Origin: Candidatus Saccharimonas aalborgensis
GTDB lineage: Bacteria; Patescibacteriota; Saccharimonadia; Saccharimonadales; Saccharimonadaceae
Reading direction: 5' to 3'
NCBI RefSeq assembly: GCF_000392435.1
Contig: NC_021219.1
Span: forward strand, 120,001 to 152,000
DNA: 32,000 nt
The first letter of the stretch is position 1. Each line of letters starts with the position of its first letter. Shown here piece by piece: positions 3,159 through 32,000 of the stretch. The position numbers and the translations under genes are program-made. The notes below the pieces were generated by a model. That model made no database searches, had not been told where the DNA came from, and saw only the letters and a list, made by a program, of their open reading frames with translations.

Positions 3159-3181
3159 ACTGCTAGTATAGCATCGACAAG

Positions 3182-4206: not shown

Positions 4207-4223
4207 ATACCTAGTATACTATC

Positions 4224-6114: not shown

Positions 6115-6261
6115 ACGGTTTTCCTCCGCATAGCCAAGTCAGCCATTGATCCAAATACTCCTATCTGTAATTTCCTTTTCATATCTATCCCTTCGTTTTT
6201 AGTGATGCATAAGCAAAGCGCCAGCTAATGCCGGCGCTTCATACATCTGAATAGATAGAAA

Positions 6262-6579
6262 TTAGCCGACATCAACTGGCGGTGTATGGGCATGATCACC
6301 AGAGAGAATTGCTTGGTAGCCTCCGGTGCCATTGTCCATCCAGTCACGAATACGCGCAACGGTACGTGTCGACAAACGCGTTTCTTTGACGATCTGGTCG
6401 TATGTGTATCCAGCTCGTAGGAGCGCTGCTGCTTTTAGACGGGTGCTAACTTCACGTATTTCTTTTTCTGTCATCACGTCACGCAAAAATGCTTGCATGA
6501 GCGCTATGTCATCAATGCCAGCAAGCACCTGCGAAAATCGCTTCGCTTCTGGTGATTTCCATACGGTGGAGGTATTCAT
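6262..6579 (-). CDS. TrpR-like (YerC/YecD family) DNA-binding protein
   Basis: LRDVMTEKEIREVSTRLKAAALLRAGYTYDQIVKETRLSTRTVARI matches the Trp-repressor-like fold family. The start is set at MNTSTVW (6579). Confidence 0.75.
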   Translation of the reverse strand: MNTSTVWKSPEAKRFSQVLAGIDDIALMQAFLRDVMTEKEIREVSTRLKAAALLRAGYTYDQIVKETRLSTRTVARIRDWMDNGTGGYQAILSGDHAHTPPVDVG

Positions 6580-6586
6580 GAGATAC

Positions 6587-6615
6587 ATTTTACCAAAGTA
6601 AAGTATATTTGTCAA
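6587..6615 (-). promoter_or_regulatory. Sigma70-type promoter TTGACA-17 nt-TAAAAT, 7 nt before the trpR-like ATG (leaderless arrangement)
   Basis: The minus strand reads ttgacaaatatactttactttggtaaaatgtatctcATG. Confidence 0.5.
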
Positions 6616-6644
6616 TACCTCTTTATTTCATTCACTGCCCGCCC

Positions 6645-6673
6645 TTGAGTTAGCTCTCCTGCGGTGATATAAT
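6645..6673 (+). promoter_or_regulatory. Promoter TTGAGT-17 nt-TGaTATAAT aimed at the orphan tRNA-Gln 5' fragment
   Basis: -35 box at 6645-6650 and extended -10 box at 6665-6673. The orphan fragment starts 12 nt downstream. Confidence 0.55.
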
Positions 6674-6684
6674 TCCACTACTAC

Positions 6685-6715
6685 TGGGGATTCGCCAAGT
6701 GGTAAGGCACCAGGT
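6685..6715 (+). pseudogene. Orphan 5' fragment of tRNA-Gln (nt 1-31)
   Basis: 31/31 identical to 6976-7006 (tggggattcgccaagtggtaaggcaccaggt). No matching 3' acceptor strand follows it. Confidence 0.85.
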
Positions 6716-6975
6716 GAGAACTGCCATGGGGGCAGTTCGCAAGGCCGGAAGCCGGATGAGCCTGGGGCTCACCGACTGAGGCGGGTCTGCGAGCAATTTC
6801 TGAAGGAAATTGATGAGCAGACTGGTCCTGGCATTCGGAGTGAAGATTGCCCGTCGGCAATCTGCAAGGCGATCTCACAAATATGCTGTGCTTATTTGAC
6901 TGAGTCGTGAGCCCGCGGGACGTGGGTCGAATCCGATTCGAACTCCCGCACATTTCAGGTATAATATATGCATAC
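6716..6975 (+). other. Structured spacer between the orphan fragment and the intact tRNA-Gln
   Basis: It opens with the hairpin gaactgcc/ggcagttc (6718-6738). It contains a second tRNA-Gln piece (6822-6838, equal to tRNA nt 34-50), the hairpin gattgcc/ggcaatc (6846-6862), the hairpin aaatatgc/gcttattt (6879-6897) and the motif cgcgggacgtg. Confidence 0.5.
6937..6965 (+). promoter_or_regulatory. Promoter TTCGAA-17 nt-TATAAT directly upstream of the intact tRNA-Gln
   Basis: -10 box at 6960-6965. The tRNA starts 11 nt later. Confidence 0.45.
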
Positions 6976-7050
6976 TGGGGATTCGCCAAGTGGTAAGGCA
7001 CCAGGTTCTGGTCCTGGCATTCGGGGGTTCGAATCCCTCATCCCCAGCCA
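6976..7050 (+). tRNA. tRNA-Gln (anticodon CUG) with encoded CCA
   Basis: Manual cloverleaf: acceptor tggggat/atcccca, D arm gcc/ggc, anticodon arm ccagg-ttCTGgt-cctgg, T arm ggggg-ttcgaat-ccctc, discriminator g, then CCA. Confidence 0.92.
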
Positions 7051-8834: not shown

Positions 8835-8892
8835 ATATAAAATCCTTACTACTAGTGTACAAAATTTGTGCTGTAATGTAAACTATTGTTAT

Positions 8893-9075
8893 ATGAATAA
8901 TGATTTACCTGAATATCTAACTCTGCCGGAAGTCGTGAACATCCTGAAGGTACATCCGAATACACTCCGGAACTGGGATAAAGACGGAACACTTAAGGCT
9001 ATAAGGATCGGCAAGCGTAATATCAGACGCTGGAAGAAAGCTGATGTGCTGCAATTCATACAAGACAATCAATAA
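8893..9075 (+). CDS. Excisionase-family/MerR-like HTH protein (60 aa), candidate recombination directionality factor
   Basis: LTLPEVVNILKVHPNTLRNWDKDGTLKAIRIGKRNIRRWKKADV is a typical HTH_17 pattern. The gene is divergent from LSR1. Confidence 0.7.
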   Translation: MNNDLPEYLTLPEVVNILKVHPNTLRNWDKDGTLKAIRIGKRNIRRWKKADVLQFIQDNQ

Positions 9076-9229
9076 GCTCTCAGAACAGCCAATACTCACG
9101 CATTATCCGGCTTAAATAAGCATCTTCTTTGCATTTTTATTTCATAGACGGACTTAGAGTCAACTTTTTATTTTAAACGCAAGATTCGCATCAGCGTCAG
9201 GGGCGTTTCTCGTAACTTTGATATATAAT

Positions 9230-9375
9230 CAGAGAGTCTAGATTCAACAATTAGAATAATGAAGTCAACAGACTTTTCGTTTGAACCGTAAATACGGCAA
9301 CTCCTTGCGAAAGCATTTAGGTTCAAACCTGATTGTTGAGTCTAGACAACCCTAGTAAGGGGTTGTCGTTTTTAT
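9230..9375 (+). ncRNA. Candidate structured leader or small RNA ending in an intrinsic terminator
   Basis: An extended -10 box TGaTATATA (9219-9227) precedes a nested hairpin. The outer 16-bp stem pairs 9236-9251 with 9332-9347, and an inner 9-bp stem is gtttgaacc/ggttcaaac. The terminator gacaaccc/gggttgtc plus TTTTT lies at 9345-9373. Confidence 0.35.
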
Positions 9376-9396
9376 TAGCAAGGAGTACAGCATCAT

Positions 9397-9672
9397 ATGA
9401 ATTCGTTAATCGCATACGATCCAGTAATACAAGGTGGAAGCAATTCAACTGTAGACGGTTTAAATGAAGACCGTGAACAGTACTATCAGCAACAAGCAAA
9501 TCAGAGCAACAAGCAAGAAGAGCTCAAACTTGAACAGCAAAAGCTACAGCTACAACAGCAACAGCAGGACACGAACCAACAACTCGTTATTGGTGGTTTA
9601 GTCTTAGGCGGTGTCTTAGTCATTAGTATCGCAATATACCTATTAGCAAAGACATTCAAGAAGAAAAAGTAA
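9397..9672 (+). CDS. Gln-rich tail-anchored small protein (91 aa)
   Basis: AAGGAG RBS, a Q-rich coiled-coil-like middle, a single C-terminal TM helix and a KKKK tail. Confidence 0.5.
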   Translation: MNSLIAYDPVIQGGSNSTVDGLNEDREQYYQQQANQSNKQEELKLEQQKLQLQQQQQDTNQQLVIGGLVLGGVLVISIAIYLLAKTFKKKK

Positions 9673-9829
9673 GCTACTTAGAAGCAGTGTCATATAGTGC
9701 CAATGTATATAATTGAACATAACCAAAAACTGCTAGTTTACGCCGGATTCTCACTGTTAAACACATAAGGGTCGTATCACATGGTTATGGTATGGAGTTA
9801 TAGGAGTAATTCATTGTATAATATACCTC

Positions 9830-11755
9830 ATGACTAATCTGACAAACATCCTCGCAAAATTGACTGCACTCATCGAAAAAAACAAAGCATACATCATAGA
9901 CGGATCCTTAAATCGAAACCTACTTGCAGCTGATGCTCGTAAGTATGACCCTGAACTACTAAACCTTCTGCAGAAGGATGCTGAACTCAAAGAACACTTC
10001 TTCGCTGCTACTGATGGTGGGCTTGTATTCAAGAAAGATGTTTTCTTGCAGTTCATCATGAACAAAGAGTTTTTGCCGGATAGCTACACAAAGTACAAGA
10101 TCAAGATCGGGCTTGGAGCTGACGACGGATCACTTTTATCGGAGAGTGGAGATGTCGTTCTAAATTGGCCATATAAAGATGCGATCCTTGAAGGCGGACA
10201 GGACAAAGAAGATCAAAAACGAAGCGAAGTCTTTTTCAATGAGGTACTAGCCCCAGATCAAATTACACGCCTGTTCGATGATAAAGTTTTCACTAATTGG
10301 AAACGATACGATAAAGACGGCGAACGCGATCTCGATGAACTTAAAGACGATGACAATTTAATCATCAAAGGCAACAACCTTGTCGTGCTTCATAGTCTCA
10401 AAAAGCGATATGCCGGTAGGGTGAAAATGATCTACATAGATCCGCCTTACAATACCGGAAATGATAGTTTCGGGTATAACGACCGCTTTAATCATGCGTC
10501 TTGGCTAACATTTATGCGGAATAGGCTCAATGCAGCAAAAATGCTTCTCGCTAATGATAGTGTGCTAGCTATTCAGATCGACGATGATGAGCATGCGTAC
10601 CTCAAGGTTTTAGCAGACGAAATCCTTGGAAGAGATAACTTTGTAAAATCGATTGCACTCAAGATGTCTACAGCCTCGGGTGTTAAAACTGCTCACCGTG
10701 ACCGCACTATTTTGAAAGAGAAAGAACATATTCTCATATACAAGAGAGGTACTTTAAGGGTTACACCAGAATACATTAAGGCTGATGAGTGGGATAGTGA
10801 ATTTCAATTCGTACTCGAAGGAAAAGAATCTGGTAAGTATAAAGTTATAAAACTTAGTGAATACTTAAAGCAGAATAATATCGATGCAAATGCCAACAGT
10901 GACGAATTCAAAGAGTTCGTGATAAAAAATGCCGATATCATCTGGAGACGAGCATTCATCAGGGGTTCATGGAAGGAAAAATCACTTGCGAATCCTAGTG
11001 AAGTGATAGTCAATAAGGGAGAAAACGGGATCGCATACTACTATGGTGGTCGGCAAATGTACTTCTATAAAGAGAAATTTCATGAATTTTATGATGAGAA
11101 TACAAAAAAGTTTGGCCCGAGCAGTTTACTTGGAGATCTGTGGGCGGATATTAATACTGGGCGTATTTTTAATGAAGGCGGAGTAGAACTAAGAAACGGT
11201 AAAAAAGCAGAACAGATTCTAGCAAGGCTATTGCGAATGTTTACAAAGCCTGGCGATCTGGTGATGGATTATCATTTAGGCTCAGGAACTACCTCAGCCG
11301 TTGCTCATAAGATGGGTCGGCAATACATTGGCATTGAACAGCTCTACTATGGCGATAACGATCCTATGAATCGATTACAGAATGTCATTAACGGTGATCA
11401 GTCAGGCATTAGCAAAGGTGTAAACTGGCAAGGAGGGGGCAGCTTTGTTTATGCGAACATTATGAACAATTCGAACAAGTTCCGAAAGCGAGTTGAGGCT
11501 GCTATGAATGATTCAGATTATTTAGCTCTGTTAAAGGAAGCGACTTCGTCTTCATTCCTGAGTTACCGTGTTGATCCTAAGAAACTCAACGAAGAAGAAT
11601 TCCGGAAACTAAGTTCCGCTGAAAAACGACGGCTCCTACTTGAACTTATCGATAATAATACTCTCTACGTAAATTATGAAGACATCAATGATCCTCTATT
11701 CAAGGTGAGTGAAAAAGATAAAGAGTTTAACAAGAAGCTTTACGAAAAGAATTAA
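9830..11755 (+). CDS. mod: Type III restriction-modification methyltransferase (Mod)
   Basis: Catalytic motif IYIDPPYNTGND followed later by the AdoMet motif DYHLGSGTT (beta-class order). It lies directly upstream of res. Confidence 0.9.
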   Translation: MTNLTNILAKLTALIEKNKAYIIDGSLNRNLLAADARKYDPELLNLLQKDAELKEHFFAATDGGLVFKKDVFLQFIMNKEFLPDSYTKYKIKIGLGADDGSLLSESGDVVLNWPYKDAILEGGQDKEDQKRSEVFFNEVLAPDQITRLFDDKVFTNWKRYDKDGERDLDELKDDDNLIIKGNNLVVLHSLKKRYAGRVKMIYIDPPYNTGNDSFGYNDRFNHASWLTFMRNRLNAAKMLLANDSVLAIQIDDDEHAYLKVLADEILGRDNFVKSIALKMSTASGVKTAHRDRTILKEKEHILIYKRGTLRVTPEYIKADEWDSEFQFVLEGKESGKYKVIKLSEYLKQNNIDANANSDEFKEFVIKNADIIWRRAFIRGSWKEKSLANPSEVIVNKGENGIAYYYGGRQMYFYKEKFHEFYDENTKKFGPSSLLGDLWADINTGRIFNEGGVELRNGKKAEQILARLLRMFTKPGDLVMDYHLGSGTTSAVAHKMGRQYIGIEQLYYGDNDPMNRLQNVINGDQSGISKGVNWQGGGSFVYANIMNNSNKFRKRVEAAMNDSDYLALLKEATSSSFLSYRVDPKKLNEEEFRKLSSAEKRRLLLELIDNNTLYVNYEDINDPLFKVSEKDKEFNKKLYEKN

Positions 11756-11773
11756 CGAGGATTATCGATCATT

Positions 11774-14422
11774 ATGAATAATAATCCTCAAGACAAAATG
11801 CTTAAAAGTGACGAATACGATATCCTGAGTCGATTTCAGGGTGGTTTTACGACAGTACCTGAGCACATATCACTCAATCTTCGCCATGAACTAAGGCCAT
11901 ATCAGACGGAAGCACTCGGACGGTATTTGCATTACTACGATAGCGACAAGAATCGTGATCAAACTCGTGGCATGCAATTGCTTTTCAACATGGCAACCGG
12001 ATCCGGCAAGACGATGATCATGGCGGCACTTCTGCTTGATCTATATAAGCGTGGACAGAACAAGATCGTATTCTTTGTGAATACCACCAACATCATCGAG
12101 AAGACACGAGAGAATTTTCTCGATTCGTCTTCTAGTAAGTACCTCTTCGCTGAAAAGATTGTCATCGATGGTGAAGTTGTAAACGTTCGTGAACTAACTG
12201 ACTTTTCTGATGCACGTGATGATTCGATCAATATCGTCTTCACGACTATCCAAGGGCTACACACTACGCTCAAAGCACCTAGAGAAAACAGTTTAACGTA
12301 TGACGACCTGACTGAACATGATCTCGTACTGTTAAGCGATGAAGCACACCATTTGAACGGTGATACCAAGAAGCTAAACGCTGATGAGAAAAAAGATAAT
12401 ACTTCATGGGAGAGTACGATTAATGCCGTCATGAACGGCAACCCTATGAACCATCTCTTTGAGTTTACGGCAACGATTGATCTTGATGATAAAGAGATCT
12501 TCTACAAGTACAAGAACCGTATCATCTACCGCTACGACCTCCGAGCATTTCGTGAAGACGGCTACAGCAAAGATGTCTGGATCTATGACGTTGCAGCCGA
12601 TCTCATGGATCGTGCTATTCAAGCAATGATCATCTCACAGTACCGTAAGAAAATCGCATTGGCAGCTGGCGTCTGGCTCAAGCCGGTCATTCTCTTTAAG
12701 TCATTCAGGATCGCAGATGCAAATGACTTCTATGATGAATTTGTACTGAAGGTTAAATCAATTTCACATACTGACATTGATAAACAACGTAAGATCGCAA
12801 CCGGGATTCTCGAACGTGCATTTGCGTACTTCGATCAAGAAGGTATCAGTGGATCCGATCTTGCAGATGAACTTCGTTTCGACTTTGCGGAAGAACGACT
12901 AATATCAGTCACTAAAAAAGCTATCACCCCAGAAGATCAACAACGACTCAATTCACTGGAAGATCGGGACAATGAGATCCGTGCAGTATTTGCTGTTGAC
13001 GTGTTGGATGAAGGCTGGGATGTCTTGAACCTCTTCGATATCGTTCGCCTGTATGACACACGTGACAGCAAGAACGGACGACCCGGTAAGACAACGATGC
13101 GAGAAGCACAGTTAATCGGCCGTGGAGCCAGGTATTATCCGTTTGTATTAGATGGAGATGAAGAGAAACGATTCGTTCGGAAGTTTGATGACAATGAGCT
13201 AGAACCACTCCGTGTTATTGAGCAACTGCACTATCATTCAGCAAGTAATCCAAAATACATCCAGGAGATTCGTCAGACACTTCGTGAGACGGGTATTATG
13301 CCGGATATCAACACGGTTAAGCGTGAATTAAATCTGAAAGACTCGTTCAAGGAATCTCACACTTACAAAACGGGTGTCGTCTGGAAGAACGAGCAAGTTG
13401 AAGCCACTGCTATTCCTGAGCAGACGGTATTCCTCGGAGGAGAAGGATACAAACTGCAAGATATTTATGAGATATCTGTTCCTGTAGGCATCTCCCACGA
13501 CCGTCAGATCTTTGTAGATAATAGTGATCTCGAGGCACAAACAAGAAGCGAAGAGCATACCTTCAATGTTACGTTCTCAAGATTCCCTAAGAACCTTGTA
13601 CGTCATGCGGTGGATCGTAACAAAAAACTCCGATATGACATTGTCTCAGAAAAGATTAGTGGTCTCGTTAGTCTTGAAGGCTTCTTGACCGGAGATAAGC
13701 AGCTAGGCGGCGTTAAGATCGCCGTAACAGCTGGAGTTGATCGATACGAAAAACTTACCACAGACGAGCGTCTGTTCATCGTAGAGAAGCTGCTCGCATT
13801 AGTTGCAAATGATATTGCACTGAATGAAAAGAGCTTCGAGGGCACAAAAGAATTTAAGCCTCATCCAATCAAGGAAGTGTTTGATGAACGCATTCTTAGG
13901 AATTACACGATTACAAACAATGATGCGGAGTTCGGCATCTCACAATCTCACCCGGGTAGCTATGATCAACGAGGATCACAATACTATCTCGATCTTTCAA
14001 AAGAAGATTGGCATGTATACGATGACAACTTCGGAACATCTGAAGAAAAGAAACTTGTTCTACTCATGAAGAAACTCATCGAAGATCTCCGTGAAAAATG
14101 GGACGATATCTATCTTGTTCGCAATGAAGGATCATTCAAGATCTACGAATTTGGCAAACCTGGACGTGCTTTCGAACCTGACTATGTGCTGTTTGCAAAT
14201 GACAAACGCAACGCTTCAGTTAGCTGGCAGATATTTATTGAGCCTAAAGGTAACCACTTGATTGAGCACGATGCATGGAAACAAGACTTCTTATTGAAGC
14301 TCAGTAAGGAAGCAAAGATAGTCGGTGAAGACGCAGATACCCGAGTGATCGGAGTACCATTCTTTAATGGTGATATAGAAAAACAATCACACGTCATTGA
14401 AGAAGCTTTAAAAGCACTATAA
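11774..14422 (+). CDS. res: Type III restriction enzyme, Res subunit
   Basis: Helicase motifs NMATGSGKT and LLSDEAHH. The C-terminal PD-(D/E)xK-like nuclease motif is EPDYVLF...IFIEPKG. Confidence 0.9.
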   Translation: MNNNPQDKMLKSDEYDILSRFQGGFTTVPEHISLNLRHELRPYQTEALGRYLHYYDSDKNRDQTRGMQLLFNMATGSGKTMIMAALLLDLYKRGQNKIVFFVNTTNIIEKTRENFLDSSSSKYLFAEKIVIDGEVVNVRELTDFSDARDDSINIVFTTIQGLHTTLKAPRENSLTYDDLTEHDLVLLSDEAHHLNGDTKKLNADEKKDNTSWESTINAVMNGNPMNHLFEFTATIDLDDKEIFYKYKNRIIYRYDLRAFREDGYSKDVWIYDVAADLMDRAIQAMIISQYRKKIALAAGVWLKPVILFKSFRIADANDFYDEFVLKVKSISHTDIDKQRKIATGILERAFAYFDQEGISGSDLADELRFDFAEERLISVTKKAITPEDQQRLNSLEDRDNEIRAVFAVDVLDEGWDVLNLFDIVRLYDTRDSKNGRPGKTTMREAQLIGRGARYYPFVLDGDEEKRFVRKFDDNELEPLRVIEQLHYHSASNPKYIQEIRQTLRETGIMPDINTVKRELNLKDSFKESHTYKTGVVWKNEQVEATAIPEQTVFLGGEGYKLQDIYEISVPVGISHDRQIFVDNSDLEAQTRSEEHTFNVTFSRFPKNLVRHAVDRNKKLRYDIVSEKISGLVSLEGFLTGDKQLGGVKIAVTAGVDRYEKLTTDERLFIVEKLLALVANDIALNEKSFEGTKEFKPHPIKEVFDERILRNYTITNNDAEFGISQSHPGSYDQRGSQYYLDLSKEDWHVYDDNFGTSEEKKLVLLMKKLIEDLREKWDDIYLVRNEGSFKIYEFGKPGRAFEPDYVLFANDKRNASVSWQIFIEPKGNHLIEHDAWKQDFLLKLSKEAKIVGEDADTRVIGVPFFNGDIEKQSHVIEEALKAL

Positions 14423-14621
14423 GCCCGGCGAAGATGCATGGGGTATGGATAATCCAAAATATACTATTTTGTATTTTTAGCCCTGTAACTTCCATACACC
14501 GCTATTGATAAGGCTTATTCCTCAGGTATAGCCTACCGTACCCCACCATGATCCAGATAATCACACTAAAATAAACCTACTCTATATATTTAGGTTCAAC
14601 ATTCTTTTCGTTAGTTATGAA

Positions 14622-14822
14622 TTACTTCTTGATCGGTTGAATATCCGGACTCGGAGCTCTTCGTGCTCGCTTACGTTCAGGGCCGTTTAGCATTATTTCA
14701 CGCTTCTTGTTTTGTTTTTTGAGATCATCAACACTCTTTGCTACCGGAGTAGTAAATACTTTATCATCCCAGTTTGATGTATCTGTAGGCGAAGTTTGAG
14801 GTGGTAGTTTGTTATCACTCAT
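14622..14822 (-). CDS. Hypothetical small basic protein (66 aa)
   Basis: ORF only, with no recognisable motif. The C-terminus is basic. Confidence 0.3.
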   Translation of the reverse strand: MSDNKLPPQTSPTDTSNWDDKVFTTPVAKSVDDLKKQNKKREIMLNGPERKRARRAPSPDIQPIKK

Positions 14823-14987
14823 TAACTACTATTATAACAAAAAGTCTATGCTGGAGGCACGATCAGACCTGACAGGATCCGCCAGCTTCTTATTCAAGGC
14901 CTCAATGCCTTTTTTGATGTTATTAAATTCCAACAGTAGTGCATGCAACTTCATAATTGCAGGTTCGTTCAAAGTACCTTCTCGGCA

Positions 14988-15037
14988 GCCAAGAAAAAAC
15001 TCTGTGAGTATCTATACTTACAGAGTTTTTTCTTGGC
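14988..15037. terminator. Perfect 18-bp hairpin with A/T runs (bidirectional terminator)
   Basis: gccaagaaaaaactctgt pairs with acagagttttttcttggc. Confidence 0.65.
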
Positions 15038-15149
15038 TCATTTTTACGTCTTGCCCGAACTCATTTTGCGACCAAATGTGAGAAATGAGACTTTTCGGCG
15101 GGTCGCCCCCGACCCGAGCCGCCGAAAGTCTCATAAACGGAATTATTTT
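15035..15149 (+). repeat. Arm A of the inverted repeat flanking the TauE gene
   Basis: 15035-15078 and 15122-15149 match the reverse complement of 16021-16093 with a few mismatches. The extra ~43 nt (15079-15121) form their own hairpin, atgagacttttcggcgg/ccgccgaaagtctcat. Confidence 0.8.
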
Positions 15150-15249
15150 CGAAGAACAATGTGCAATTGTTTTATTTTTTCGTACCCTACTTGAGTCTAA
15201 GATTTTGTCATATAATCGTATATATGACCACATCAGATAAGAGGTTGTC

Positions 15250-15987
15250 TTGGATATAACGCTTCTATTAACTTTTTTTGTTTCGTTTATTGCAAGTGTT
15301 CTGAGTGGTATAGCAGGCGGTGGTGTCAGTTTTGTTACAACACCTTTCTGGCTTGTTATTGGTCTAACGCCCGCACAAGGGGGTGCGACTGGGGCATTTA
15401 TGGCTACCGGGATGTCCCTAGGCTCACTGGCAACCTTTAGGAAATCTGGTCATATACCAAAAGATAGAAAACTTTTTTATATTTTAGCTGTAGTGACGCT
15501 TATTGCATCTATACTAGGAGTGTTTGTAGTTCCGAAGATAGACATAAGTGTGTTTCGGACGGTACTAGCCATTATCACACTAGCCGCTTTACCCCTGCTA
15601 TTCGTAAAGCCTAGCACAAAGTACAATTTGAAAAAGTATAAAAAACTTGGATTAGCGTTAGCTGCTGGACTAATGGTAATTGGCTCTATAATCATAAGTG
15701 GAGCGTTTTCAATTCTTTTTACTTTGGTACTTGTAGTGTTCTTTGGCATGTCAGTCTTGCAAACAACTGCCATGAAGCGGCTTCTGTTTTTCCTACAATC
15801 CGTTGTGCTGCTCATTGGGTTTGCCGTACAAGGCTATCTGCTTCTACAATATGCGGCTGTAGCCTTTTTCGGGGGTATACTCGGCGCACACATAGGAACT
15901 AAATATGCAGTAAAAAAGGGTGAAAACTTCGCAAAGTATGCACTTGCAGTAATGGCATTGGTTGGAGCAATAGCGCTGCTGGTATGA
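15250..15987 (+). CDS. TauE/SafE-family anion exporter
   Basis: ~8 TM segments with a GIAGGGVSFVTTPF motif. It has a TTG start, an AAGAGG RBS 5 nt upstream and a TATAAT box upstream. Confidence 0.75.
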   Translation: MDITLLLTFFVSFIASVLSGIAGGGVSFVTTPFWLVIGLTPAQGGATGAFMATGMSLGSLATFRKSGHIPKDRKLFYILAVVTLIASILGVFVVPKIDISVFRTVLAIITLAALPLLFVKPSTKYNLKKYKKLGLALAAGLMVIGSIIISGAFSILFTLVLVVFFGMSVLQTTAMKRLLFFLQSVVLLIGFAVQGYLLLQYAAVAFFGGILGAHIGTKYAVKKGENFAKYALAVMALVGAIALLV

Positions 15988-16020
15988 TCGTTCCGGCCAG
16001 TAGACAGTCATAGTAACAAC

Positions 16021-16093
16021 AAAATAATTCCGTTTATGAGACTTTCGGCATTTGGTCGCAAAATGGGTTCGGGCAAAGGCGTAAAAGTGAGCC
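16021..16093 (-). repeat. Arm B of the inverted repeat flanking the TauE gene
   Basis: Reverse complement of arm A, read directly from the sequence. Confidence 0.8.
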
Positions 16094-16161
16094 ACGCTAA
16101 GAGCTCACCAATAGGTGGGCTTTTTGCGTGGCTCGTTATTAGAATCGAACACCCGAGTGAA

Positions 16162-16290
16162 GCATTCGGGGTGAAGATTGCCTGCGGCAATCTGCAAGGC
16201 GATGTCACCGACGAGCTATGCTCATCGGCCCGACTCGCGAGGTCGGGTTAGTGTAACCGAATCCTCCAACTCGCTCAAGCATAACCAACA
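16162..16290 (+). repeat. Second copy of the module seen at 6831-6950
   Basis: 16162-16208 aligns to 6831-6878. It differs by only two substitutions and the hairpin loop (tgc versus cgtc). The next hairpin (16209-16227) has the same geometry as 6879-6897 but a different sequence. Confidence 0.7.
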
Positions 16291-16351
16291 TCGAACTCCA
16301 CTATTAGAGTTCTTTTGATTTGCGGTTGTTTATCTATTATTAAATTCTAGA

Positions 16352-16784: not shown

Positions 16785-17630
16785 TCAGCGCTTGCGACGA
16801 AACGTGGGCATCATCTCAGGAATTGATTCTTTGACGCGGACAATATGCGACCGCACGGGTCGGCCAAAATAGTTACCGACGCTGGCGCCGGCGGCAATCG
16901 ATAGCGCAACACTGAGCGCCGTCAGGAGCAGCATGTTGCCTTCTGCGACCGATGATGCGGAGGGCTTATCGACAAACTGCATTAACCCGTTGTAGAGCGC
17001 GAGTCCCGGCACCAACGGCACAACACCGGCATCGATGAGAGCGATCGATGGCGAACGATACACACGAGCGATGATTGCCCCCGCAAATCCGACTAATACT
17101 GCTGCAACACCGTTTGCCAGTGCCTCGCCACTTGCAGCGGTCAACATATAGACGCCCCATCCCAACCCACCGATTATTCCCGCCCACACGACAGCAGCGA
17201 GTTTCGACTGCATAAACAACGCCCAACCCGCTGCAATAACAACCGCACCCATCACTTGCCAAAATGGATCACCGAGTGCCACAGGATCAGGTGATACAGC
17301 AATTTTACTTCCTGCCGCGTGAGCGACCAAAAGCCCGATCACAATCCCCATCACAATTCCGGCAGTCATCACAAATGTCTTCATGAAACGCGCACTCGCC
17401 GTCACATAGAACTCGTCGATCGCATCCTGAGCAGTCGCCACCACCATAAGGCCAGCCACCAGCATGACAATCCCCCCGACAACGATGAGCGTGGGATTAA
17501 CGCCAACAAACGGCCAGACGCCGCGATTGCCAAGCTCCACAACCAACGTTGCACTCATAGTAATCGTAAACGAAGATATCGCTTGAACAAAAAAACTAAG
17601 CACCTGCCGGGCTTCAAGCCAGCGAATCAC
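16785..17630 (-). CDS. ThrE-family (threonine/serine exporter-like) membrane protein, C-terminal part
   Basis: ~9 TM segments, Gly/Ala-rich. The GTG start overlaps the upstream ORF by 17 nt. Confidence 0.65.
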   Translation of the reverse strand: MIRWLEARQVLSFFVQAISSFTITMSATLVVELGNRGVWPFVGVNPTLIVVGGIVMLVAGLMVVATAQDAIDEFYVTASARFMKTFVMTAGIVMGIVIGLLVAHAAGSKIAVSPDPVALGDPFWQVMGAVVIAAGWALFMQSKLAAVVWAGIIGGLGWGVYMLTAASGEALANGVAAVLVGFAGAIIARVYRSPSIALIDAGVVPLVPGLALYNGLMQFVDKPSASSVAEGNMLLLTALSVALSIAAGASVGNYFGRPVRSHIVRVKESIPEMMPTFRRKR

Positions 17631-18150
17631 GGTCGACCAAGCATCCTACCAAAAAAGTTGTCACCACAACAACCCACGAATTGGTAAATAACATCGTCGC
17701 ACCAGCGGTCACGCTCGCGTTTCCGATCATCGTCAGCCAACTTGGGTAGGTTGGCTTGACAGCAATTATTTTTTCGAATCTCGCTTCCGCCGAATCGAGA
17801 CTGAGTCCTCCGCGAATACTCCTCACCAAATCTTGCATCTCTTGGACAATAAGATTGTTGGGATTTTGCATCGAAACGGTGCGAATGAGCGTCAAGGGTT
17901 CTCGATCAATACCGCGATCCTGCGATGCCATGATAGACGTAGCGTTGATATCAATATGCACCCGCCGCTGACAAAGTGTCTCGGTTATATCCAGTGCGCT
18001 ATCTACTACATCGTGTGCCGACACGCCGTGACAAAGCAGCTGCTCGGCAATACGCATCGTCAGGCGTAGTGCCCGCATATTTGGTGTCAGATCACGACCA
18101 ACTTTTTGGGTATCAGTAGCAGCAGGAGTGATTGCCCTCTCATAAATCAT
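17614..18150 (-). CDS. ThrE-family protein, N-terminal (DUF1212-like) part
   Basis: A soluble N-terminal region (LRLTMRIAEQLLCHGVSAHDVVDSALDIT) is followed by the first TM segments. The ORF ends within what is normally a continuous domain. Confidence 0.65.
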   Translation of the reverse strand: MIYERAITPAATDTQKVGRDLTPNMRALRLTMRIAEQLLCHGVSAHDVVDSALDITETLCQRRVHIDINATSIMASQDRGIDREPLTLIRTVSMQNPNNLIVQEMQDLVRSIRGGLSLDSAEARFEKIIAVKPTYPSWLTMIGNASVTAGATMLFTNSWVVVVTTFLVGCLVDRDSLA

Positions 18151-22988: not shown

Positions 22989-23483
22989 CTACAGCCCCTC
23001 CTGTCGAATACGTTTCTTGGCAAGCAACATTAGCTTTCCTATATCTTCATATTCAATGAGATCAAGTGCTTCGGCAAAGGAAAACCACTTGATACCATTC
23101 ATCCATTCTTCTTTCTGTATCGCATTGGTATCGCCCTTTGCTCGCACGAGATATATTTGCGTTGTCATGAGAACAAGTCGATCGAGCCGACGATAGCGAA
23201 AATGTATCTTACCTAACCAACCGAGCATATCAACATCTGTCAGGCCGGCCTCCTCGCCAATCTCGCGACGTGCCGTCTGCAGCGCCGTCTCGCCTTCTTC
23301 GATATGACCTTTTGGAATTGTCCATCGATCTTTTGCATCCTGAATCAATAGAATCTCTAAGTCACCCGTCTTACCATGACGAAATACAATCCCGCCGCTA
23401 GTAGGCTCGCGGACGATTTCTTGGATGGATGGCTTGTGTTTACCTAAATATTTCTTAAAACGATCAAACTTTGGCGCCGGCAT
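22989..23483 (-). CDS. Nudix hydrolase (164 aa)
   Basis: Nudix box GHIEEGETALQTARREIGEEAGL. The start is set at MPAPKF (23483). The longer track ORF runs through nusB in another frame. Confidence 0.85.
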   Translation of the reverse strand: MPAPKFDRFKKYLGKHKPSIQEIVREPTSGGIVFRHGKTGDLEILLIQDAKDRWTIPKGHIEEGETALQTARREIGEEAGLTDVDMLGWLGKIHFRYRRLDRLVLMTTQIYLVRAKGDTNAIQKEEWMNGIKWFSFAEALDLIEYEDIGKLMLLAKKRIRQEGL

Positions 23484-23925
23484 TGTCTGGTTTCTCCTCG
23501 ACAAGCGTACGATACGCAGTCCCCAGGACTCCGTTGATAAACTTGCTTGAGTTATCAGAACCAAACGCTTTAGCGAGCTCAACCGCCTCGTTGATGGCGA
23601 CCTTTGGCGGCACTTTGTCGCTGCCAAAAAGTAGTTCGTAGAGTCCGAGTCGCAGAACTGATCGGTCGATGCGGGCAATCTGCTCAATTGGCCACTCTGG
23701 AGCAATCGGCTGGATGGTTTCATCCAGGTGTGCTTGCTCCTTTACGACACCCTCTACGAGAGATTTGACAAATGCCGTATCATCGATGGCTGATTCGTAA
23801 CGCTCAAGATTTCGCGCCAATATCTCATCGAGATCAACACTTGGATCCTCTGACTGCGTACGAAACTCATACTCGTAGAGAGTTTGGAGAGCGACGATAC
23901 GCCCAAGATGACGATTTGAGGCCAT
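23464..23925 (-). CDS. nusB: Transcription antitermination factor NusB
   Basis: MASNRHLGRIVALQTLYEYEF... and LAINEAVELAKAF-like motifs. Confidence 0.88.
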   Translation of the reverse strand: MASNRHLGRIVALQTLYEYEFRTQSEDPSVDLDEILARNLERYESAIDDTAFVKSLVEGVVKEQAHLDETIQPIAPEWPIEQIARIDRSVLRLGLYELLFGSDKVPPKVAINEAVELAKAFGSDNSSKFINGVLGTAYRTLVEEKPDNAGAKV

Positions 23926-24657: not shown

Positions 24658-27531
24658 TTAGACAACGATACTCAATAATTTGTGTTTGATGTAGATAATC
24701 TTTTTTGGCTCACCACTGAGATAGCCCGCTACAGCATGATCAGCAAGCGCCAGCGCCGTAATCTCTGCCTCATCTTTGTCGACACCGACAGTGAGTTTAG
24801 CACGAACCTTGCCATTGACTTGCACCACAATCGTCATCGTATCGCTCACCAAATATTCGTCATTCCATGCAGGCCACCCAGACTCTTCAAGCGAAGATTC
24901 GTTGCCGAGCTGTTGCCATAGCTCAGCGCCAAGGTGGGGAGCCATCGGTGCGATCAGGCGGGCGAGCGCATCAACAGCTTCTGCCCACTCTGGCCCCGCG
25001 AAGCCATCCAGCTTGTACTTGTAGAGTTCGTTGACGTATTCCATCAATGCGGCAATTGCCGTGTTGAAGCTTAATCGACGATAATCATCAGTTACTTTCC
25101 TGATAGTGCGATGCGTCAAAGAGCGGACTGCAGTCGCCTGCGCGGAAGTGCCTTCATGATCGCTCTCCAGGTATTCCTGTGTCAGTGTCCAAGTACGATT
25201 GAGAAATCGATAGATCCCGGCGATTCCCCGACTACTCCAGCTCGAGTTTTCGTTGATTGGCCCGAGAAACAGACAAAATACTCTGAGAGCGTCGGCACCA
25301 TACCCCTGATCGATAACATCCAGCGGATCGACGACATTGCCGAGACTCTTGCTCATCTTTCGTCCATCCTCGGCACCTATGAGCCCGTGATACACCAGTT
25401 GTTTGACAGGCTCATCGAACTCAACTAGTCCCATGTCGCGAAAAACGTGTGTCCAGAAGCGTACATAGAGCAGATGAGCGACTGCGTGATCGCCACCAAC
25501 GTACATGTCGAGTGGTGCCCAAAAATCCGCTTTTTCTTTCGACCATGGTGCATGCTCATTGAGCGGATCAGTGTAGCGAAAGAGGTACCACGACGAACAC
25601 GCGTAGCCATCCATCGTATCGGTCTCGCGCTGTGCCGGACCGCCACAGGCTGGGCACGTGGTATTAACCCAATCTGTTTCGCGTGCAAGTACAGACTTTC
25701 CATCACCTTTTGGTGCATGATCTTCGACAGGCGGCAACAACACCGGCAACTCATCGGCCGGTACGGCTACCGCACCATCCTTTTCGCAGTGAATAATCGG
25801 GATCGGCGCGCCCCAATACCGCTGACGGCTCACCAGCCAGTCACGCATCTTGTAGGTTATCTTTGCACGACCTATCCCCTGTTGTTCGAGCCACGCAACG
25901 ACTTGCTCGCGCGCTTCATAACTTGTCATTCCATCAAATATACCGGAATGCACCAGTACGCCTTCGTTTGCGAACAGATTTTTTTCTCCCTCAAGCCATC
26001 GCAAAATATGCTGAAGCTCAGAAATGGGTTTTAACGTGGGCAAGACGTCTTTTTTCACCCACATGGGCTCAAAGTCTTCATGAGCTTCACGCTGAAGCTC
26101 GACGGAATCAAGTGAGTTGAGACGAAAGCGCACAACAGTCGTCAGAATATTACGGTTGACATCCTTGTGGGCAGCATAAAACTTACTGTTTATCTTTGCG
26201 GGCATGGCCTCAATAAACGTCATATCGGTATAACCGGTTTCCTCTGCGATTTCTCGCCGCGCCGCTTCTTCGGCCGTTTCGCTATCCTCGACACCGCCCA
26301 TGACAAATCCGTGCCATGGCAGCTTATTCCACTTGAGCGTCAGGTACTCGCCATTTGTCGGGTGTTCGATAATACACATTACGACATTTCTATCAGTGTC
26401 TTGTTTGCCTTTTTGAGGGGGATTTTCCTGATCATAGAGGCTTTCGGCGATGACCTGAACAATCGGTAAATCAAACTTCGATGCAAATTCATAGTCACGG
26501 GTATCATGAGCTGGCACCGCCATGATTGCACCCGTGCCATAGCCCCAAAGCACATAGTCGGCTACCCATATCGGGATACGTTCACCGTTCGCAGGATTGA
26601 TGGCATAGGAGCCCGTTGGAACACCCGTTTTTTCTTTGCCCTCGCTCATTCGCTCTATTTCTGAACGCTTCAGAGACGCATCAATATATGACTTTACTAC
26701 CTCGTAAGTATCAGCGTTCGTAAGCTCAAGGGCAAGTGGGTGTTCGGGAGCAAGCACGAGAAAGGTCGCACCAAATACCGTATCGGGGCGTGTCGAAAAA
26801 ACGGTTAATTGTGCTTTGGTTTTTTCGACAGAGAAGGTAATCTCTGCCCCCTGGCTCTTGCCAATCCAGTTTTCCTGCGCGGTCTTGATTTTATCTGGCC
26901 AATTGAGAGCCGGCAACTCCTCAAGCAATGCCTCGGCATAATCAGTAATCTTGAAAAACCACTGTTTCATCGATTTCTTCACTACTTCGTTTTCGCAGCG
27001 CCAGCATTTGCCGTCGATCACCTGTTCGTTCGCAAGTACGGTCTTATCGACAGGACACCACCACTGCATCGATTCTTTTTGATATGCTAAGCCACGCTTG
27101 AAAAATTCAGCAAAAATCCACTGCGTCCATTTATAATATGACGGATCGCTGGTGTTGATTTCTCGCGACCAGTCGAGGCTTGCTCCCATGCGCACAAGCT
27201 GATTCTTGAAGCTAGCGATATTGTAACGCGTCGTTTCGGCAGGTGGTTTGCCAGTCTTGATCGCATAATTTTCTGCAGGCAGACCAAAGGCATCCCATCC
27301 CATAGGGTTAAGTACGTTGTAGCCCTGTTGTCGATGAAACCGCGCTACCGAGTCGACAATGGCATGCTCAAAGGCGTGCCCAGTATGCATGCCGGCCCCG
27401 CTGGGGTAAGGAAACATGCAAGAAATATAGTATTTATTTTTGGCCGAATCCTCGACAACATCATAGCGATGGTCGTTCGCCCATTGTTGTTGCCATTTTG
27501 GCTCGATACTTGCAGGATCATAGCGCTTCAT
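24658..27531 (-). CDS. leuS: Leucine--tRNA ligase carrying an inserted Nudix domain
   Basis: Segments PYPSGAGMHTGHA (HIGH-type), AVPAHDTRDYEF, RDWLVSRQRYWGAPIP and KMSKS. The start is set at MKRYDPASIEPKWQ (27531), 7 nt after a TATACT box. Confidence 0.92.
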   Translation of the reverse strand: MKRYDPASIEPKWQQQWANDHRYDVVEDSAKNKYYISCMFPYPSGAGMHTGHAFEHAIVDSVARFHRQQGYNVLNPMGWDAFGLPAENYAIKTGKPPAETTRYNIASFKNQLVRMGASLDWSREINTSDPSYYKWTQWIFAEFFKRGLAYQKESMQWWCPVDKTVLANEQVIDGKCWRCENEVVKKSMKQWFFKITDYAEALLEELPALNWPDKIKTAQENWIGKSQGAEITFSVEKTKAQLTVFSTRPDTVFGATFLVLAPEHPLALELTNADTYEVVKSYIDASLKRSEIERMSEGKEKTGVPTGSYAINPANGERIPIWVADYVLWGYGTGAIMAVPAHDTRDYEFASKFDLPIVQVIAESLYDQENPPQKGKQDTDRNVVMCIIEHPTNGEYLTLKWNKLPWHGFVMGGVEDSETAEEAARREIAEETGYTDMTFIEAMPAKINSKFYAAHKDVNRNILTTVVRFRLNSLDSVELQREAHEDFEPMWVKKDVLPTLKPISELQHILRWLEGEKNLFANEGVLVHSGIFDGMTSYEAREQVVAWLEQQGIGRAKITYKMRDWLVSRQRYWGAPIPIIHCEKDGAVAVPADELPVLLPPVEDHAPKGDGKSVLARETDWVNTTCPACGGPAQRETDTMDGYACSSWYLFRYTDPLNEHAPWSKEKADFWAPLDMYVGGDHAVAHLLYVRFWTHVFRDMGLVEFDEPVKQLVYHGLIGAEDGRKMSKSLGNVVDPLDVIDQGYGADALRVFCLFLGPINENSSWSSRGIAGIYRFLNRTWTLTQEYLESDHEGTSAQATAVRSLTHRTIRKVTDDYRRLSFNTAIAALMEYVNELYKYKLDGFAGPEWAEAVDALARLIAPMAPHLGAELWQQLGNESSLEESGWPAWNDEYLVSDTMTIVVQVNGKVRAKLTVGVDKDEAEITALALADHAVAGYLSGEPKKIIYIKHKLLSIVV
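25978..26400 (-). other. Nudix-fold insertion inside leuS (about residues 395-535 of the track ORF)
   Basis: Nudix box GGVEDSETAEEAARREIAEETGY is encoded at 26230-26298. Confidence 0.8.
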
Positions 27532-27591
27532 TGGCATTAGTATACCAAAATCGCCCCTGATTGTCAGGGGCGATCGTTGCATCTGTCTTAC

Positions 27592-30419: not shown

Positions 30420-30448
30420 TTGAAAAAACGTTACTCCCGAGATATACT
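30420..30448 (+). promoter_or_regulatory. Promoter TTGAAA-17 nt-TATACT aimed at the orphan tRNA-Gly 5' fragment
   Basis: Read directly from the sequence. The orphan fragment starts 21 nt downstream. Confidence 0.5.
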
Positions 30449-30468
30449 CACTTAGTACAGTAAAATAC

Positions 30469-30492
30469 GCGGGTTTAGCTCAGTTGTTAGAG
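30469..30492 (+). pseudogene. Orphan 5' fragment of tRNA-Gly (nt 1-24)
   Basis: 24/24 identical to 30647-30670 (gcgggtttagctcagttgttagag). Confidence 0.85.
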
Positions 30493-30646
30493 TGAGAATC
30501 TCCGGCAGAGATTCGGAAACGGACTTTCCGATGAAAACTACGTTTTCAATAGTGAAATCCGGGGGTCGCGGGACGTGACCTGCCTTGCAAGGCCAAGGAA
30601 GCTAACACAGGAGCGCACCTCGTACGCACATTGTTACCAACCATAC
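30493..30646 (+). other. Structured spacer between the orphan fragment and the intact tRNA-Gly
   Basis: It opens with the hairpin gaatctc/gagattc (30496-30514), then cggaaa/tttccg and gaaaac/gttttc hairpins and the motif cgcgggacgtg. It also holds an anticodon-arm-like piece, ccttgc-aagg-ccaaggaag. Confidence 0.5.
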
Positions 30647-32000
30647 GCGGGTTTAGCTCAGTTGTTAGAGCGCTTCCTTGCCAAGGAAGAGGTCGAGAGT
30701 TAGAGTCTCTTAACCCGCACCAAATATTTGAATTATGAGCCGAAAGGCTCTTTTTCTTTGCCTCAACGATGGTTCTAAAGGGGTCGTTTAGTATATAAGA
30801 CAGCTTTTTGTCCTTTAATTCAATGTTTGAAAGTACGTATTCCAATAACTTCTGTCGTAGCCCCTCATCGCTCTCTTTGAACAACTGGTCAGCCCGTTGA
30901 GCCAAGTCTAACAGGTAAGAGGCGGTTACTTGGAACTGTTTGTTATCATTTGTTAGCAACTTTAGGCGGTCATTCAGTTCCTGCTGTTTCTTTTCTAGCT
31001 CAGTTGCAATTTCATCGTGGAATGTCTGTGTAATACGACCCTCAAGTAAGTCATAGTAAACCTTACGCATTTTGTCCTTGAGCTTGTCGTACTCAGCACG
31101 GGTCTGCTCAATGTTTTGCGTAAAGTAGGTTTGCTGGTCGTTATGACGGTTACGCAGCTCGGCAATGACTTTATCTAACCAATTTTCTGGCACGTCTATA
31201 AACCCTATATCTGCCGCTACTTCATCAATTACGAGGCTCACGGCTGTATTAGGATTATCGCACTTGGAGTTAGCACATCGCAAATACACTGTGTTGCGAG
31301 CCTTGAATGGCGATACTGCACGTCCGCACTTGCCGCACTTCACTATCTTTTTGAGTGTAAAGTCTTTGCTATCGTACTTAGTCTTTTCGTGTTTACGCTC
31401 ATCACGGACACGCTGCACTTGGTTGAACAAGGCACGGCTGATTAGCGGCTTGTACTTGTGTGGGTACTCTCTGCCAGCGTGTACCATAACGCCATAGTAG
31501 AATGGGTTGCTCAAGATGCGTTCAAGAAACTGCTTACTTGGTGCTTTACTGCCAGCGATATTGCTACGAAAACCCATCTCACGAAGTTCTTTTGCAATGA
31601 CAGCATACGACATACCTCTTGCTCGCAGTTCATACGCTTTTACAATGTAGTGTGCCTTTGCATCATCAACTTCAATATCTTTGAGTGGTTTCTGTGGCGT
31701 ACCGCCCTTCAGCACGTTTAGATAGCCAATAGGAGCACGATGTACCCAAATGCCCTCACTCAGCATCTGCTCAAAGCGGCGTTTTACATTATCACGGATA
31801 CTATCTGAGTAGTATTTTGCCAGTGCCATACCAATACCTAGCCGAAACCAATCAGCAGCCGATGAGTTTTTATCAATGTACAGGCTATCGTTAGGGAAGT
31901 GCAGCTCAATCTTGCCTTGTTTGACCAACTGCTGCAATGCTTTTACTTCTTCTTGGCTACTATCACGAGTAAGGCGGTCTATCTTATCAAAGACTACGTA
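30546..32000 (-). CDS. Large serine recombinase (LSR2); the N-terminus lies beyond the window end
   Basis: The frame is open to the window edge (YVVFDKIDRLTRDSSQEEV..., the resolvase DRLxR motif). It has a zinc ribbon CGKCGRAV...RCANSKCDN and a coiled coil. The ORF reads antisense through tRNA-Gly. Confidence 0.85.
   Translation of the reverse strand, partial: YVVFDKIDRLTRDSSQEEVKALQQLVKQGKIELHFPNDSLYIDKNSSAADWFRLGIGMALAKYYSDSIRDNVKRRFEQMLSEGIWVHRAPIGYLNVLKGGTPQKPLKDIEVDDAKAHYIVKAYELRARGMSYAVIAKELREMGFRSNIAGSKAPSKQFLERILSNPFYYGVMVHAGREYPHKYKPLISRALFNQVQRVRDERKHEKTKYDSKDFTLKKIVKCGKCGRAVSPFKARNTVYLRCANSKCDNPNTAVSLVIDEVAADIGFIDVPENWLDKVIAELRNRHNDQQTYFTQNIEQTRAEYDKLKDKMRKVYYDLLEGRITQTFHDEIATELEKKQQELNDRLKLLTNDNKQFQVTASYLLDLAQRADQLFKESDEGLRQKLLEYVLSNIELKDKKLSYILNDPFRTIVEAKKKSLSAHNSNIWCGLRDSNSRPLPWQGSALTTELNPRMVGNNVRTRCAPVLASLALQGRSRPATPGFHY
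30647..30722 (+). tRNA. tRNA-Gly (anticodon GCC) with encoded CCA and an unusual elbow
   Basis: Manual cloverleaf: acceptor gcgggtt/aacccgc, D arm gctc-agttgtta-gagc, anticodon arm cttcc-ttGCCaa-ggaag, T arm gagag-ttagagt-ctctt. Confidence 0.85.
30737..30755 (+). terminator. tRNA-Gly terminator embedded in the LSR2 reading frame
   Basis: gagcc-gaaa-ggctc followed by TTTTT. Confidence 0.6.

Follow-up and report, generated by a model that had tools for sequence, protein, structure and literature searches.

A covarying four-helix element inside truncated tRNA gene copies of Saccharibacteria, possibly the folded module of small integrating cassettes

We analysed a stretch of 32,000 nucleotides (nt) from Candidatus Saccharimonas aalborgensis (contig NC_021219.1, positions 120,001 to 152,000; hereafter "the window", numbered from its first letter), in which two tRNA genes, tRNA-Gln and tRNA-Gly, are each preceded by an orphan copy of their own 5′ end and a spacer. 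The spacer is one copy of a strongly base-paired four-helix element of ~88-107 nt, which we term the "Unit". The same architecture, with covariation, was found at more than 140 further places, and the first-pass annotation of this DNA, made from the letters alone, was therefore right to see in it something family-specific and not chance. The Unit occurs independently of any large serine recombinase (LSR) gene in cis, and it appears to be undescribed: Rfam 15 returned tRNA only (up to E = 10 for both window loci and up to E = 1 for 12 other Unit loci), nothing Unit-like was found in the IMG/VR, phage and plasmid collections, and no description was found in the literature searched. As to its role, the reading we prefer, held tentatively and with the admission that it could well be wrong, is that the Unit is a cis-acting folded module of small, mostly non-autonomous cassettes integrating at tRNA genes.

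The Unit opens with TGA[GA][GA]A and continues with the P1 hairpin of 8-10 base pairs (bp), the sequence GCAAGG or GGAAAC, a helix P2 enclosing P3, and the P4 hairpin GGGYCGCG-GRA-CGTGRCC. Four copies are present in the window (6715-6821, 6841-6927, 16172-16258 and 30493-30580), the last three of subtype B, which has P1 and the base of the last helix in common with subtype A and differs from it in the middle part. The hairpin noticed in the first-pass annotation is P1. Its reading of both spacers as opening with T followed by GAGAA and then a hairpin was correct, and so were the stems, gaactgcc/ggcagttc at tRNA-Gln (locus 1) and gaatctc/gagattc at tRNA-Gly (locus 2), in which three consecutive pairs differ between the loci yet remain complementary; only the loop of locus 1 has to be amended, from four nt to five (atggg). 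The cgcgggacgtg seen in both spacers (6914-6924 and 30568-30578) is P4, the 3′ hairpin of the Unit, and both spacers do end in catac.

For comparison, LSR1-family loci (LSR1 is the recombinase beside tRNA-Gln) were collected from 79 genomes, nearly all of them Saccharibacteria, and the sequence type of the window spacers was found again at L045, L055, L074, L067, L037, L047, L069 and L078. A covariance model, R1, was built from 11 copies aligned with MAFFT and folded with RNAalifold, which predicted 28 pairs, 18 of them with compensatory changes. R1 matches 19 copies in the window and genome loci together, and 128 copies in 100 of the 120 metagenome loci that were retrieved by the P1 pattern and in which 132 Units were defined by pattern. 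In the 128 model-aligned copies 96.2% of the cells are paired, against 77.6% in shuffles and 28-46% in slid controls, and both-sided changes occur at 26 of the 28 pairs (571 compensatory cells); this alignment was fitted to the model, which somewhat inflates the pairing, and the independent MAFFT/RNAalifold result agrees in direction. The structural alignment of spacers that had been proposed as a check thus confirmed the covariation of the first hairpin and extended it to four helices. Some orphans have diverged (42/62 and 36/51 matches) and some Units are truncated, as would be expected if the loci were decaying relics of old rearrangements that resemble each other by chance. Against such statistics, a single architecture in more than 140 copies and perfect orphans in half of the cases, we consider this explanation already refuted and give it practically no weight.

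G·U and U·G pairs are abundant in the Unit helices (for example in 98 of 114 sequences at one P4 pair). These become A·C mismatches on the opposite strand, and therefore it is a single strand that folds, the one with tRNA-sense polarity. The alternative raised at the outset, a palindromic double-stranded protein-binding site of the attachment (att) type, is disfavoured by the frequency of these pairs, and the Unit is unlikely to be a symmetric double-stranded protein site. A K-turn or box C/D motif was considered for the internal loop between P2 and P3 and rejected, since the loop sequence varies between the subtypes.

Every Unit is embedded in a truncated copy of the tRNA next to it, always in tRNA sense. 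Among the 132 pattern-defined Units, 60 are upstream of the cognate tRNA and 44 downstream, where the Unit starts at 72-94 nt. The upstream order is promoter, tRNA nt 1 to a junction c, Unit, a short further tRNA piece, an AT-rich spacer of 40-60 nt and the intact tRNA, and these 60 cases involve tRNAs for Gln, Gly, Glu, Lys, Pro, Leu, Ser, Trp, Val, Arg and Thr. Values of c group around nt ~17, 23-25, 37-38 and 50-54, with 62-65 in the long-arm tRNAs (Leu, Ser), and 17-64 nt of tRNA are duplicated; 30 of the 60 orphans match their tRNA perfectly (100%) from +1 as far as the junction, and the 5′ junction of the Unit is invariably a GG followed by TGAG. The downstream order (tRNA, terminator, inverted T-arm copy with the 5′ strand of the T stem, Unit, tRNA nt ~55-76, terminator) is the mirror image of the upstream one.

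Expression signals accompany both layouts, terminators around the downstream modules and -10 boxes in the upstream spacers, where a box matching at least 5 of 6 positions stands 14-21 nt ahead of the tRNA +1 in 39 of 50. Often an inverted T-loop copy, TTCGAAC, is placed ~17 nt upstream of this -10 in the position of a -35, and this tRNA-derived palindrome seems to double as the -35 of the intact tRNA's promoter. TTCGAAC ~17 nt before TATAAT was also read in the window (6937-6965) and in the spacers of L085, L098, L099, L102, L146, L163 and L167. The inverted T-loop motif is enriched, loosely, on the expected side in both types. Units are patchily distributed, being found at 10 of the 134 tRNAs (~7%) in the LSR-anchored genome loci. 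Two further ideas were dropped: an upstream "splint" complementary to both Unit flanks failed an exact-match test, and a tRNA cassette between two Units was rejected, since Units stand on either side of just 3 among the 72 Unit-bearing tRNAs for which both flanks are sequenced.

In the window, three Units belong to tRNA-Gln, two upstream and one downstream, and a single upstream Unit belongs to tRNA-Gly (Table 1). At tRNA-Gly an exact repeat of 28 nt (30465-30492 = 30643-30670, 100%), made of ATAC and tRNA-Gly nt 1-24, places the orphan 178 nt upstream of the intact gene; this duplication, the promoter ahead of it and the 154-nt interval up to the tRNA (30493-30646) are all as first described. 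The Unit here scores 81.6 bits (E = 7.5e-16, R1), and the modified anticodon-arm-like piece behind it, ccttgcaaggccaaggaag, was seen again at 7 other tRNA-Gly loci. At tRNA-Gln the exact repeat is 34 nt long (6682-6715 = 6973-7006, 100%), made of three upstream bases and tRNA-Gln nt 1-31, with the orphan 291 nt upstream. What had been described there as one spacer element is actually two nested or adjacent ones, a Unit of type A and then one of type B, and homologues of the type A copy were found with nhmmer and regular expressions at L078, L074, L108, L133, L169 and L190. Later pieces of the cognate tRNA are present in both spacers, as had been claimed. The nearest relative of the Unit at 16172-16258 is that at 6841-6927, as judged from repeats and alignment. 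When the LSR1 island is deleted in silico this Unit falls 77 nt past tRNA-Gln, which is the usual spacing, and ahead of it come a T-run hairpin and an inverted copy of the T arm, and behind it a terminator; the region is a standard downstream module of tRNA-Gln.

Table 1. Features of the tRNA-Gln and tRNA-Gly loci and of the adjoining recombinase islands in the window
Feature	Position	Strand	Remarks
Promoter TTGAGT-17-TATAAT	6645-6673	+	Ahead of the orphan tRNA-Gln fragment
Orphan tRNA-Gln nt 1-31	6685-6715	+	Exact repeat of the tRNA 5′ end
Unit type A	6715-6821	+	P1 and basal last helix common with B; middle differs (CCGGAAGCCGGATGA...ACCGACTGAGGCGGG)
tRNA-Gln nt 33-49 piece	6822-6838	+	Between Unit A and Unit B
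Unit type B	6841-6927	+	Covariance model R1, 78.7 bits
T-loop piece tcgaatcc, then inverted T-arm copy gattcgaactcccg	6927-6975	+	Read from sequence
Intact tRNA-Gln(CTG)	6976-7050	+	tRNA call
LSR1	7038-8834	-	Resolvase and Recombinase domains; 13-nt overlap with the tRNA-Gln 3′ end
LSR1 island	7051-16094	.	Bounded by the 5-bp repeat AGCCA (7046-7050, 16090-16094); putative boundaries
Xis-like helix-turn-helix protein	8860-9075		LSR1 island
Type III restriction-modification system, complete	9830-14422		Cargo of LSR1 island; Mod 641 amino acids (aa), Res 882 aa
TauE	15250-15987		LSR1 island
Inverted T-arm copy agaatcgaacacccgag and direct tRNA-Gln nt 42-51 (gcattcgggg)	16141-16171	+
Unit type B, downstream kind for tRNA-Gln	16172-16258	+	R1 70.4 bits; shifted away by the LSR1 island
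Terminator	16293-16312	+	Ends the downstream module
Promoter TTGAAA-17-TATACT	30420-30448	+	Ahead of the orphan tRNA-Gly fragment and Unit; score 10/12
Orphan tRNA-Gly nt 1-24	30469-30492	+	Identity continues 4 nt further upstream (ATAC)
Unit type B	30493-30580	+	P1 hairpin, P2 around P3, P4 hairpin ggtcgcg-gga-cgtgacc
Post-Unit piece ccttgcaaggccaaggaag	30583-30601	+	Resembles the anticodon arm; 30592-30601 = exact tRNA-Gly nt 34-43
AT-rich spacer	30602-30646	+	3′ end catac; convincing -10 box not seen in this copy
Intact tRNA-Gly(GCC)	30647-30722	+	70 bits
Terminator hairpin	30737-30750	+	Directly 3′ of tRNA-Gly, within the antisense read-through tail of LSR2
LSR2 open reading frame (ORF)	30546-32000	-	Recombinase and Zn-ribbon domains; N-terminus outside the window; separate island at the tRNA 3′ end

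The first-pass annotation had included the neighbouring LSR gene in the architecture, and a Unit dedicated to that gene, as an att-site arm or as a guide-like RNA acting in cis, would be the natural extension of its view. An LSR gene does converge on the tRNA at both window loci, LSR1 overlapping the tRNA-Gln 3′ end and LSR2 running antisense across tRNA-Gly; Unit, tRNA and LSR are also found together at L045, L055, L074 and L202, and target-identical tRNA pieces stand on either side of a conserved scaffold. However, an LSR homologue shares the contig with only 3 of the 132 metagenome Units, and the genes 3′ of 10 upstream-type loci are ordinary ones (MraY, QueA, PheS, RsmA, a glycosyltransferase, Fic and GGDEF). 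Collecting LSR loci from related genomes recovered the same sequence type but showed most LSR-adjacent tRNAs to be without orphan and Unit: 63 of 79 LSR1-family genes end at a tRNA, mostly tRNA-Pro and with an overlap of a few nt, and only 3 of these 63 tRNAs have the orphan and upstream Unit, which is about the background frequency given above. LSR1 and LSR2 are only 25% identical and have the same Unit type beside them, close LSR1 homologues lack a Unit (one that is 84% identical adjoins a plain tRNA-Gln without orphan), and the window Units are on the opposite side of the tRNA from the LSR crossover, which is at the 3′ end. We therefore regard a dedicated LSR accessory as very unlikely; the tie between Unit and LSR is incidental, and the two LSR islands of the window form a layer of their own, or one added later, at the 3′ ends of these tRNAs.

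At L037 a 4,101-bp LSR element forms a 100%-identical tandem dimer at tRNA-Pro(GGG) (reverse complement, 34-8256) with three copies of the 20-bp core AAGTCCTGTCACCCCGACCA. A Unit abuts this att core of an active LSR element, an argument for an LSR accessory, and therefore some LSR elements, at least, carry a Unit. An older module with another Unit type (CGAAAACAGCC...) lies directly downstream of the dimer. At six other loci (L042, L043, L048, L001, L072 and L076) the far ends of the LSR islands, ~5-9 kb from tRNA-Pro, combine an inverted copy of the T arm with ~100 nt of different, hairpin-rich sequence (e.g. TGAATTTTGC-TATA-GCAAAATT) and the last ~18 nt of tRNA-Pro; such stretches, seen at the far ends of many LSR1-family islands, are probably further Unit types missed by the model.

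Some observations concern the recombinase genes themselves. The tail of LSR2 continues antisense through the whole of tRNA-Gly to a stop at 30546, its last ~60 codons (63 codons, 30546-30735, minus strand) lying opposite the tRNA, the spacer and part of the Unit. Many LSR1-family proteins (P0001-P0120) have 600-666 aa and tails typical of antisense tRNA, the family consensus tail being alike, and the predicted C-termini of LSRs therefore depend on the integration site. Our own interpretation is that this antisense read-through looks like a by-product of an att site at the end of the ORF. At L080/L081 the closest LSR1 homologue (P0002, 86%) adjoins not a tRNA but a mini-hairpin ending ...gctcAGCCA, in which only AGCCA is common with tRNA-Gln, and a second LSR gene lies 4 kb away; the mini-hairpin may be an unintegrated attP or a secondary site.

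Another possibility is that the Unit is a host RNA, a cis-acting leader or trailer of tRNA transcripts that controls tRNA maturation or expression, for example through competition of the orphan 5′ strand for the acceptor 3′ strand. A strong promoter immediately ahead of orphan and Unit would fit this, as would whole-transcript folds, in which the Unit helices form and the acceptor strand of the orphan pairs with the real tRNA's 3′ end (z = -2.9 and -4.6). The orphan also follows lineage-specific variants of the tRNA, and the Unit is better conserved than its flanks between L090 and L200. A related suggestion of the first-pass annotation, that the intact tRNA lacks its own promoter and is matured from the orphan's transcript, holds at best for tRNA-Gly, which has no -10 box in 30602-30646; tRNA-Gln has TTCGAA (6937-6942, from its inverted T-arm copy), 17 nt and TATAAT (6960-6965), and most homologous spacers have the -10 box counted above. 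Besides these promoters of most intact tRNAs, a host RNA is opposed by the presence of the Unit at so few tRNAs, by its occurrence on either side of them, the downstream copies standing behind a terminator with no promoter noticed there by eye, by the independence of Unit type from tRNA type, and by arrays, nesting, truncated copies and cargo genes. We judge a host regulatory role to be unlikely, if still worth keeping in mind.

These last features are better seen one by one. L169 has three orphan and Unit repeats in tandem, the most decayed one outermost; Units are nested in L133, L200, L102, L047 and locus 1 of the window; and at L190, L175 and L084 Unit-ORF-Unit arrays and cargo occur with no recombinase, few such arrays being seen. 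L090 and L200 are orthologous, and L200 has in addition three Units and 3.2 kb of cargo. The nearest neighbour of a Unit belongs to the same tRNA type in only 9 of 64 cases (11% by chance), and such relationships cross between upstream and downstream types.

From arrangements of this kind we infer mobility by site-specific integration, and the cassette model gives a possible course of events, with a part for the Unit and a candidate recombinase. The upstream cassette would consist of the Unit, the short tRNA piece, the promoter-bearing spacer and tRNA nt 1 to c, and its insertion would rebuild the tRNA; the former promoter would then transcribe a non-functional 5′ remnant joined to the Unit, and this remnant is the orphan. 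The downstream cassette would be its mirror image, composed of tRNA 3′ end, terminator, inverted T-arm copy and Unit. In both, the acting form of the Unit would be one folded strand with the polarity of the tRNA, be it RNA or single-stranded DNA, and the recombinase would be supplied in trans, possibly by the abundant tRNA-targeting LSRs as the prime candidates. The model would explain the regenerated tRNA, the promoter/terminator logic, the arrays and L037.

Several points weigh against it. For the upstream cassette we found no excised circle, empty site or strict presence/absence pair, the search for an empty orthologous site having returned only re-sampled identical loci and the L090/L200 pair, and no upstream cassette contains cargo. 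At 150-230 bp, an excised circle would be very short for recombination to take place. One Unit lineage is found with different tRNAs, which simple site-specific integration does not account for; either Units are swapped between cassettes or the tRNA copy is made from the target. In the L090/L200 pair the Unit is 84% conserved against 73-77% for the flanks, which hints at a function in place. LSRs use double-stranded sites and are not known to need a folded strand; why one should be required is left unexplained by the cassette model. Earlier att-site versions, namely an element between the repeats, an element comprising Unit, full tRNA and LSR, and deletion within a tandem array, were dropped because the displaced 3′ part of the tRNA is absent (window, L045, L055) and LSRs are absent at most loci.

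The position of the junctions suggests yet another explanation, an intron-like or ribozyme RNA that attacks exposed tRNA loops, with the chimeras copied back into DNA beside the gene. The junctions fall at single-stranded tRNA positions (D loop, nt 26, anticodon loop and T loop), the duplicated parts start at the mature +1 or finish at CCA, and the Unit has a compact, strongly conserved fold, a constant tRNA-sense orientation and a 5′ boundary that is sharp regardless of the sequence upstream, as in ribozymes that cleave their own 5′ end. Since CCA is gene-encoded, however, the gene ends coincide with the mature ends anyway. A Unit was never observed within a complete tRNA, none of the ORFs examined at these loci stood out as a reverse transcriptase, the Rfam ribozyme and intron models gave no match, and the promoter-bearing spacer and the terminator are unaccounted for; altogether we find such an RNA quite improbable. 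A wider proposal that draws on both the cassettes and the exposed loops, and which is conceivable but in our opinion doubtful, is that bacteria of the candidate phyla radiation have a new mobile system, defined by the Unit, in which a folded single strand of RNA or DNA directs insertion into exposed tRNA-gene loops, duplicating the gene end and bringing a promoter or terminator so that the tRNA survives. It would be integron-like or ribozyme-like, with tRNA genes for docking and possibly with serine recombinases in trans.

Whatever its role, the Unit adds a large, well-supported family of structured nucleic acids to a phylum poor in known non-coding elements, and in Saccharibacteria a dynamic layer of what may be tiny cassettes lies around the tRNA genes, distinct from the islands that carry recombinases. 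Should the Unit serve in recombination or targeting, it would represent a compact natural means of placing DNA at tRNA genes without loss of their function, and might uncover a structured-strand requirement that is new for serine recombinases; as an RNA, it would found a new class, one capturing the promoters of tRNAs. Annotation of these genomes is prone to artefacts at orphan tRNA fragments and at recombinase ORFs running antisense through tRNAs. Elsewhere in the window, leucyl-tRNA synthetase (24658-27582, minus strand, 974 aa) has a NUDIX domain (aa 401-516) inserted behind the editing domain, with a separate NUDIX protein at 22989-23723. A ThrE-family exporter is present as two overlapping ORFs on the minus strand (16785-17630 and 17614-18150), which correspond to an N-terminal half and to a C-terminal half with ThrE_2, either through a frameshift or pseudogene or as a genuine two-gene arrangement.

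Among known systems, elements that target tRNA genes (phages, integrative and conjugative elements, tycheposons) leave a regenerated tRNA and a partial repeat, as is also seen at the Unit loci; the dimer at L037, the arrays at L190 and L175 and the LSR1 island between its AGCCA repeats may be compared with them. Tycheposons integrate into a tRNA gene and restore it from the partial tRNA copy that they bring along, leaving partial tRNA repeats behind and accumulating in tandem (10.1101/2020.12.28.424599). Unit modules differ in that most of them have 150-230 bp without integrase or cargo, an integrase of their own being found in the two window islands and L037 and not in the Unit modules, that in half of them it is the 5′ side that is replaced and a promoter is supplied, and that their partial tRNA copy is always interrupted by the covarying four-helix element. 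The attP and attB sites of LSRs are double-stranded, ~40-50 bp long and of imperfect dyad symmetry, and need no intrastrand pairing. The Unit, in contrast, folds into four helices over 88 nt, with every helix covarying and G·U pairs that are strand-asymmetric, and it is rarely near an LSR (3/132), L037 being the exception.

Integron attC sites and cassettes are similar in that structure is conserved over sequence and one strand is folded; the recombinase of the Unit cassettes would likewise act in trans, and the few arrays seen (Unit-ORF-Unit or orphan-Unit repeats at L190, L175 and L169) may recall the arrays of short cassettes bounded by attC. However, the Unit has three hairpins and an enclosing helix against the one bulged hairpin of attC with its R''-L''/L'-R' boxes and extrahelical bases, its boundary is GG followed by TGA[GA][GA]A against GTTRRRY, its target is a tRNA gene against attI, and its cassettes carry a promoter or terminator plus part of a tRNA; IntI was not noticed in the loci that were read. 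With the IS200/IS605-derived palindrome-associated transposable elements (PATEs) moved by HUH enzymes, and with repetitive extragenic palindromes (REP) and bacterial interspersed mosaic elements (BIME), Units may be compared for their small size, a hairpin at each end (P1 and P4), strand specificity, nesting, the lack of terminal inverted repeats and a left end that is sharp after a short fixed flank, ..GG. PATEs insert 3′ of a short fixed target and duplicate none of it, whereas Units are strictly tied to tRNA sequence and come with a long target duplication (17-64 nt of tRNA) plus a spacer. A TnpA/RAYT gene was not seen at the Unit loci, and no genome-wide TnpA search was made.

tRNA introns, whether bacterial group I or the archaeal non-canonical ones, and split tRNAs likewise interrupt the tRNA at its loops in sense orientation, whereas here the interrupted copies are all truncated and an intact gene stands alongside; moreover the catalytic core of a group I intron (P3-P9) would not fit into so small an element, and no match to Intron_gpI was obtained. 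Finally, the bridge RNA or seekRNA of IS110/IS1111 elements is also a structured non-coding region at an element end, near the recombination site and with target-like flanks. The recombinases here are serine enzymes and not DEDD, most Units have no recombinase gene nearby, and the tRNA-like pieces are sense copies outside the Unit scaffold rather than loops inside it, where a bridge RNA has its complements to target and donor.

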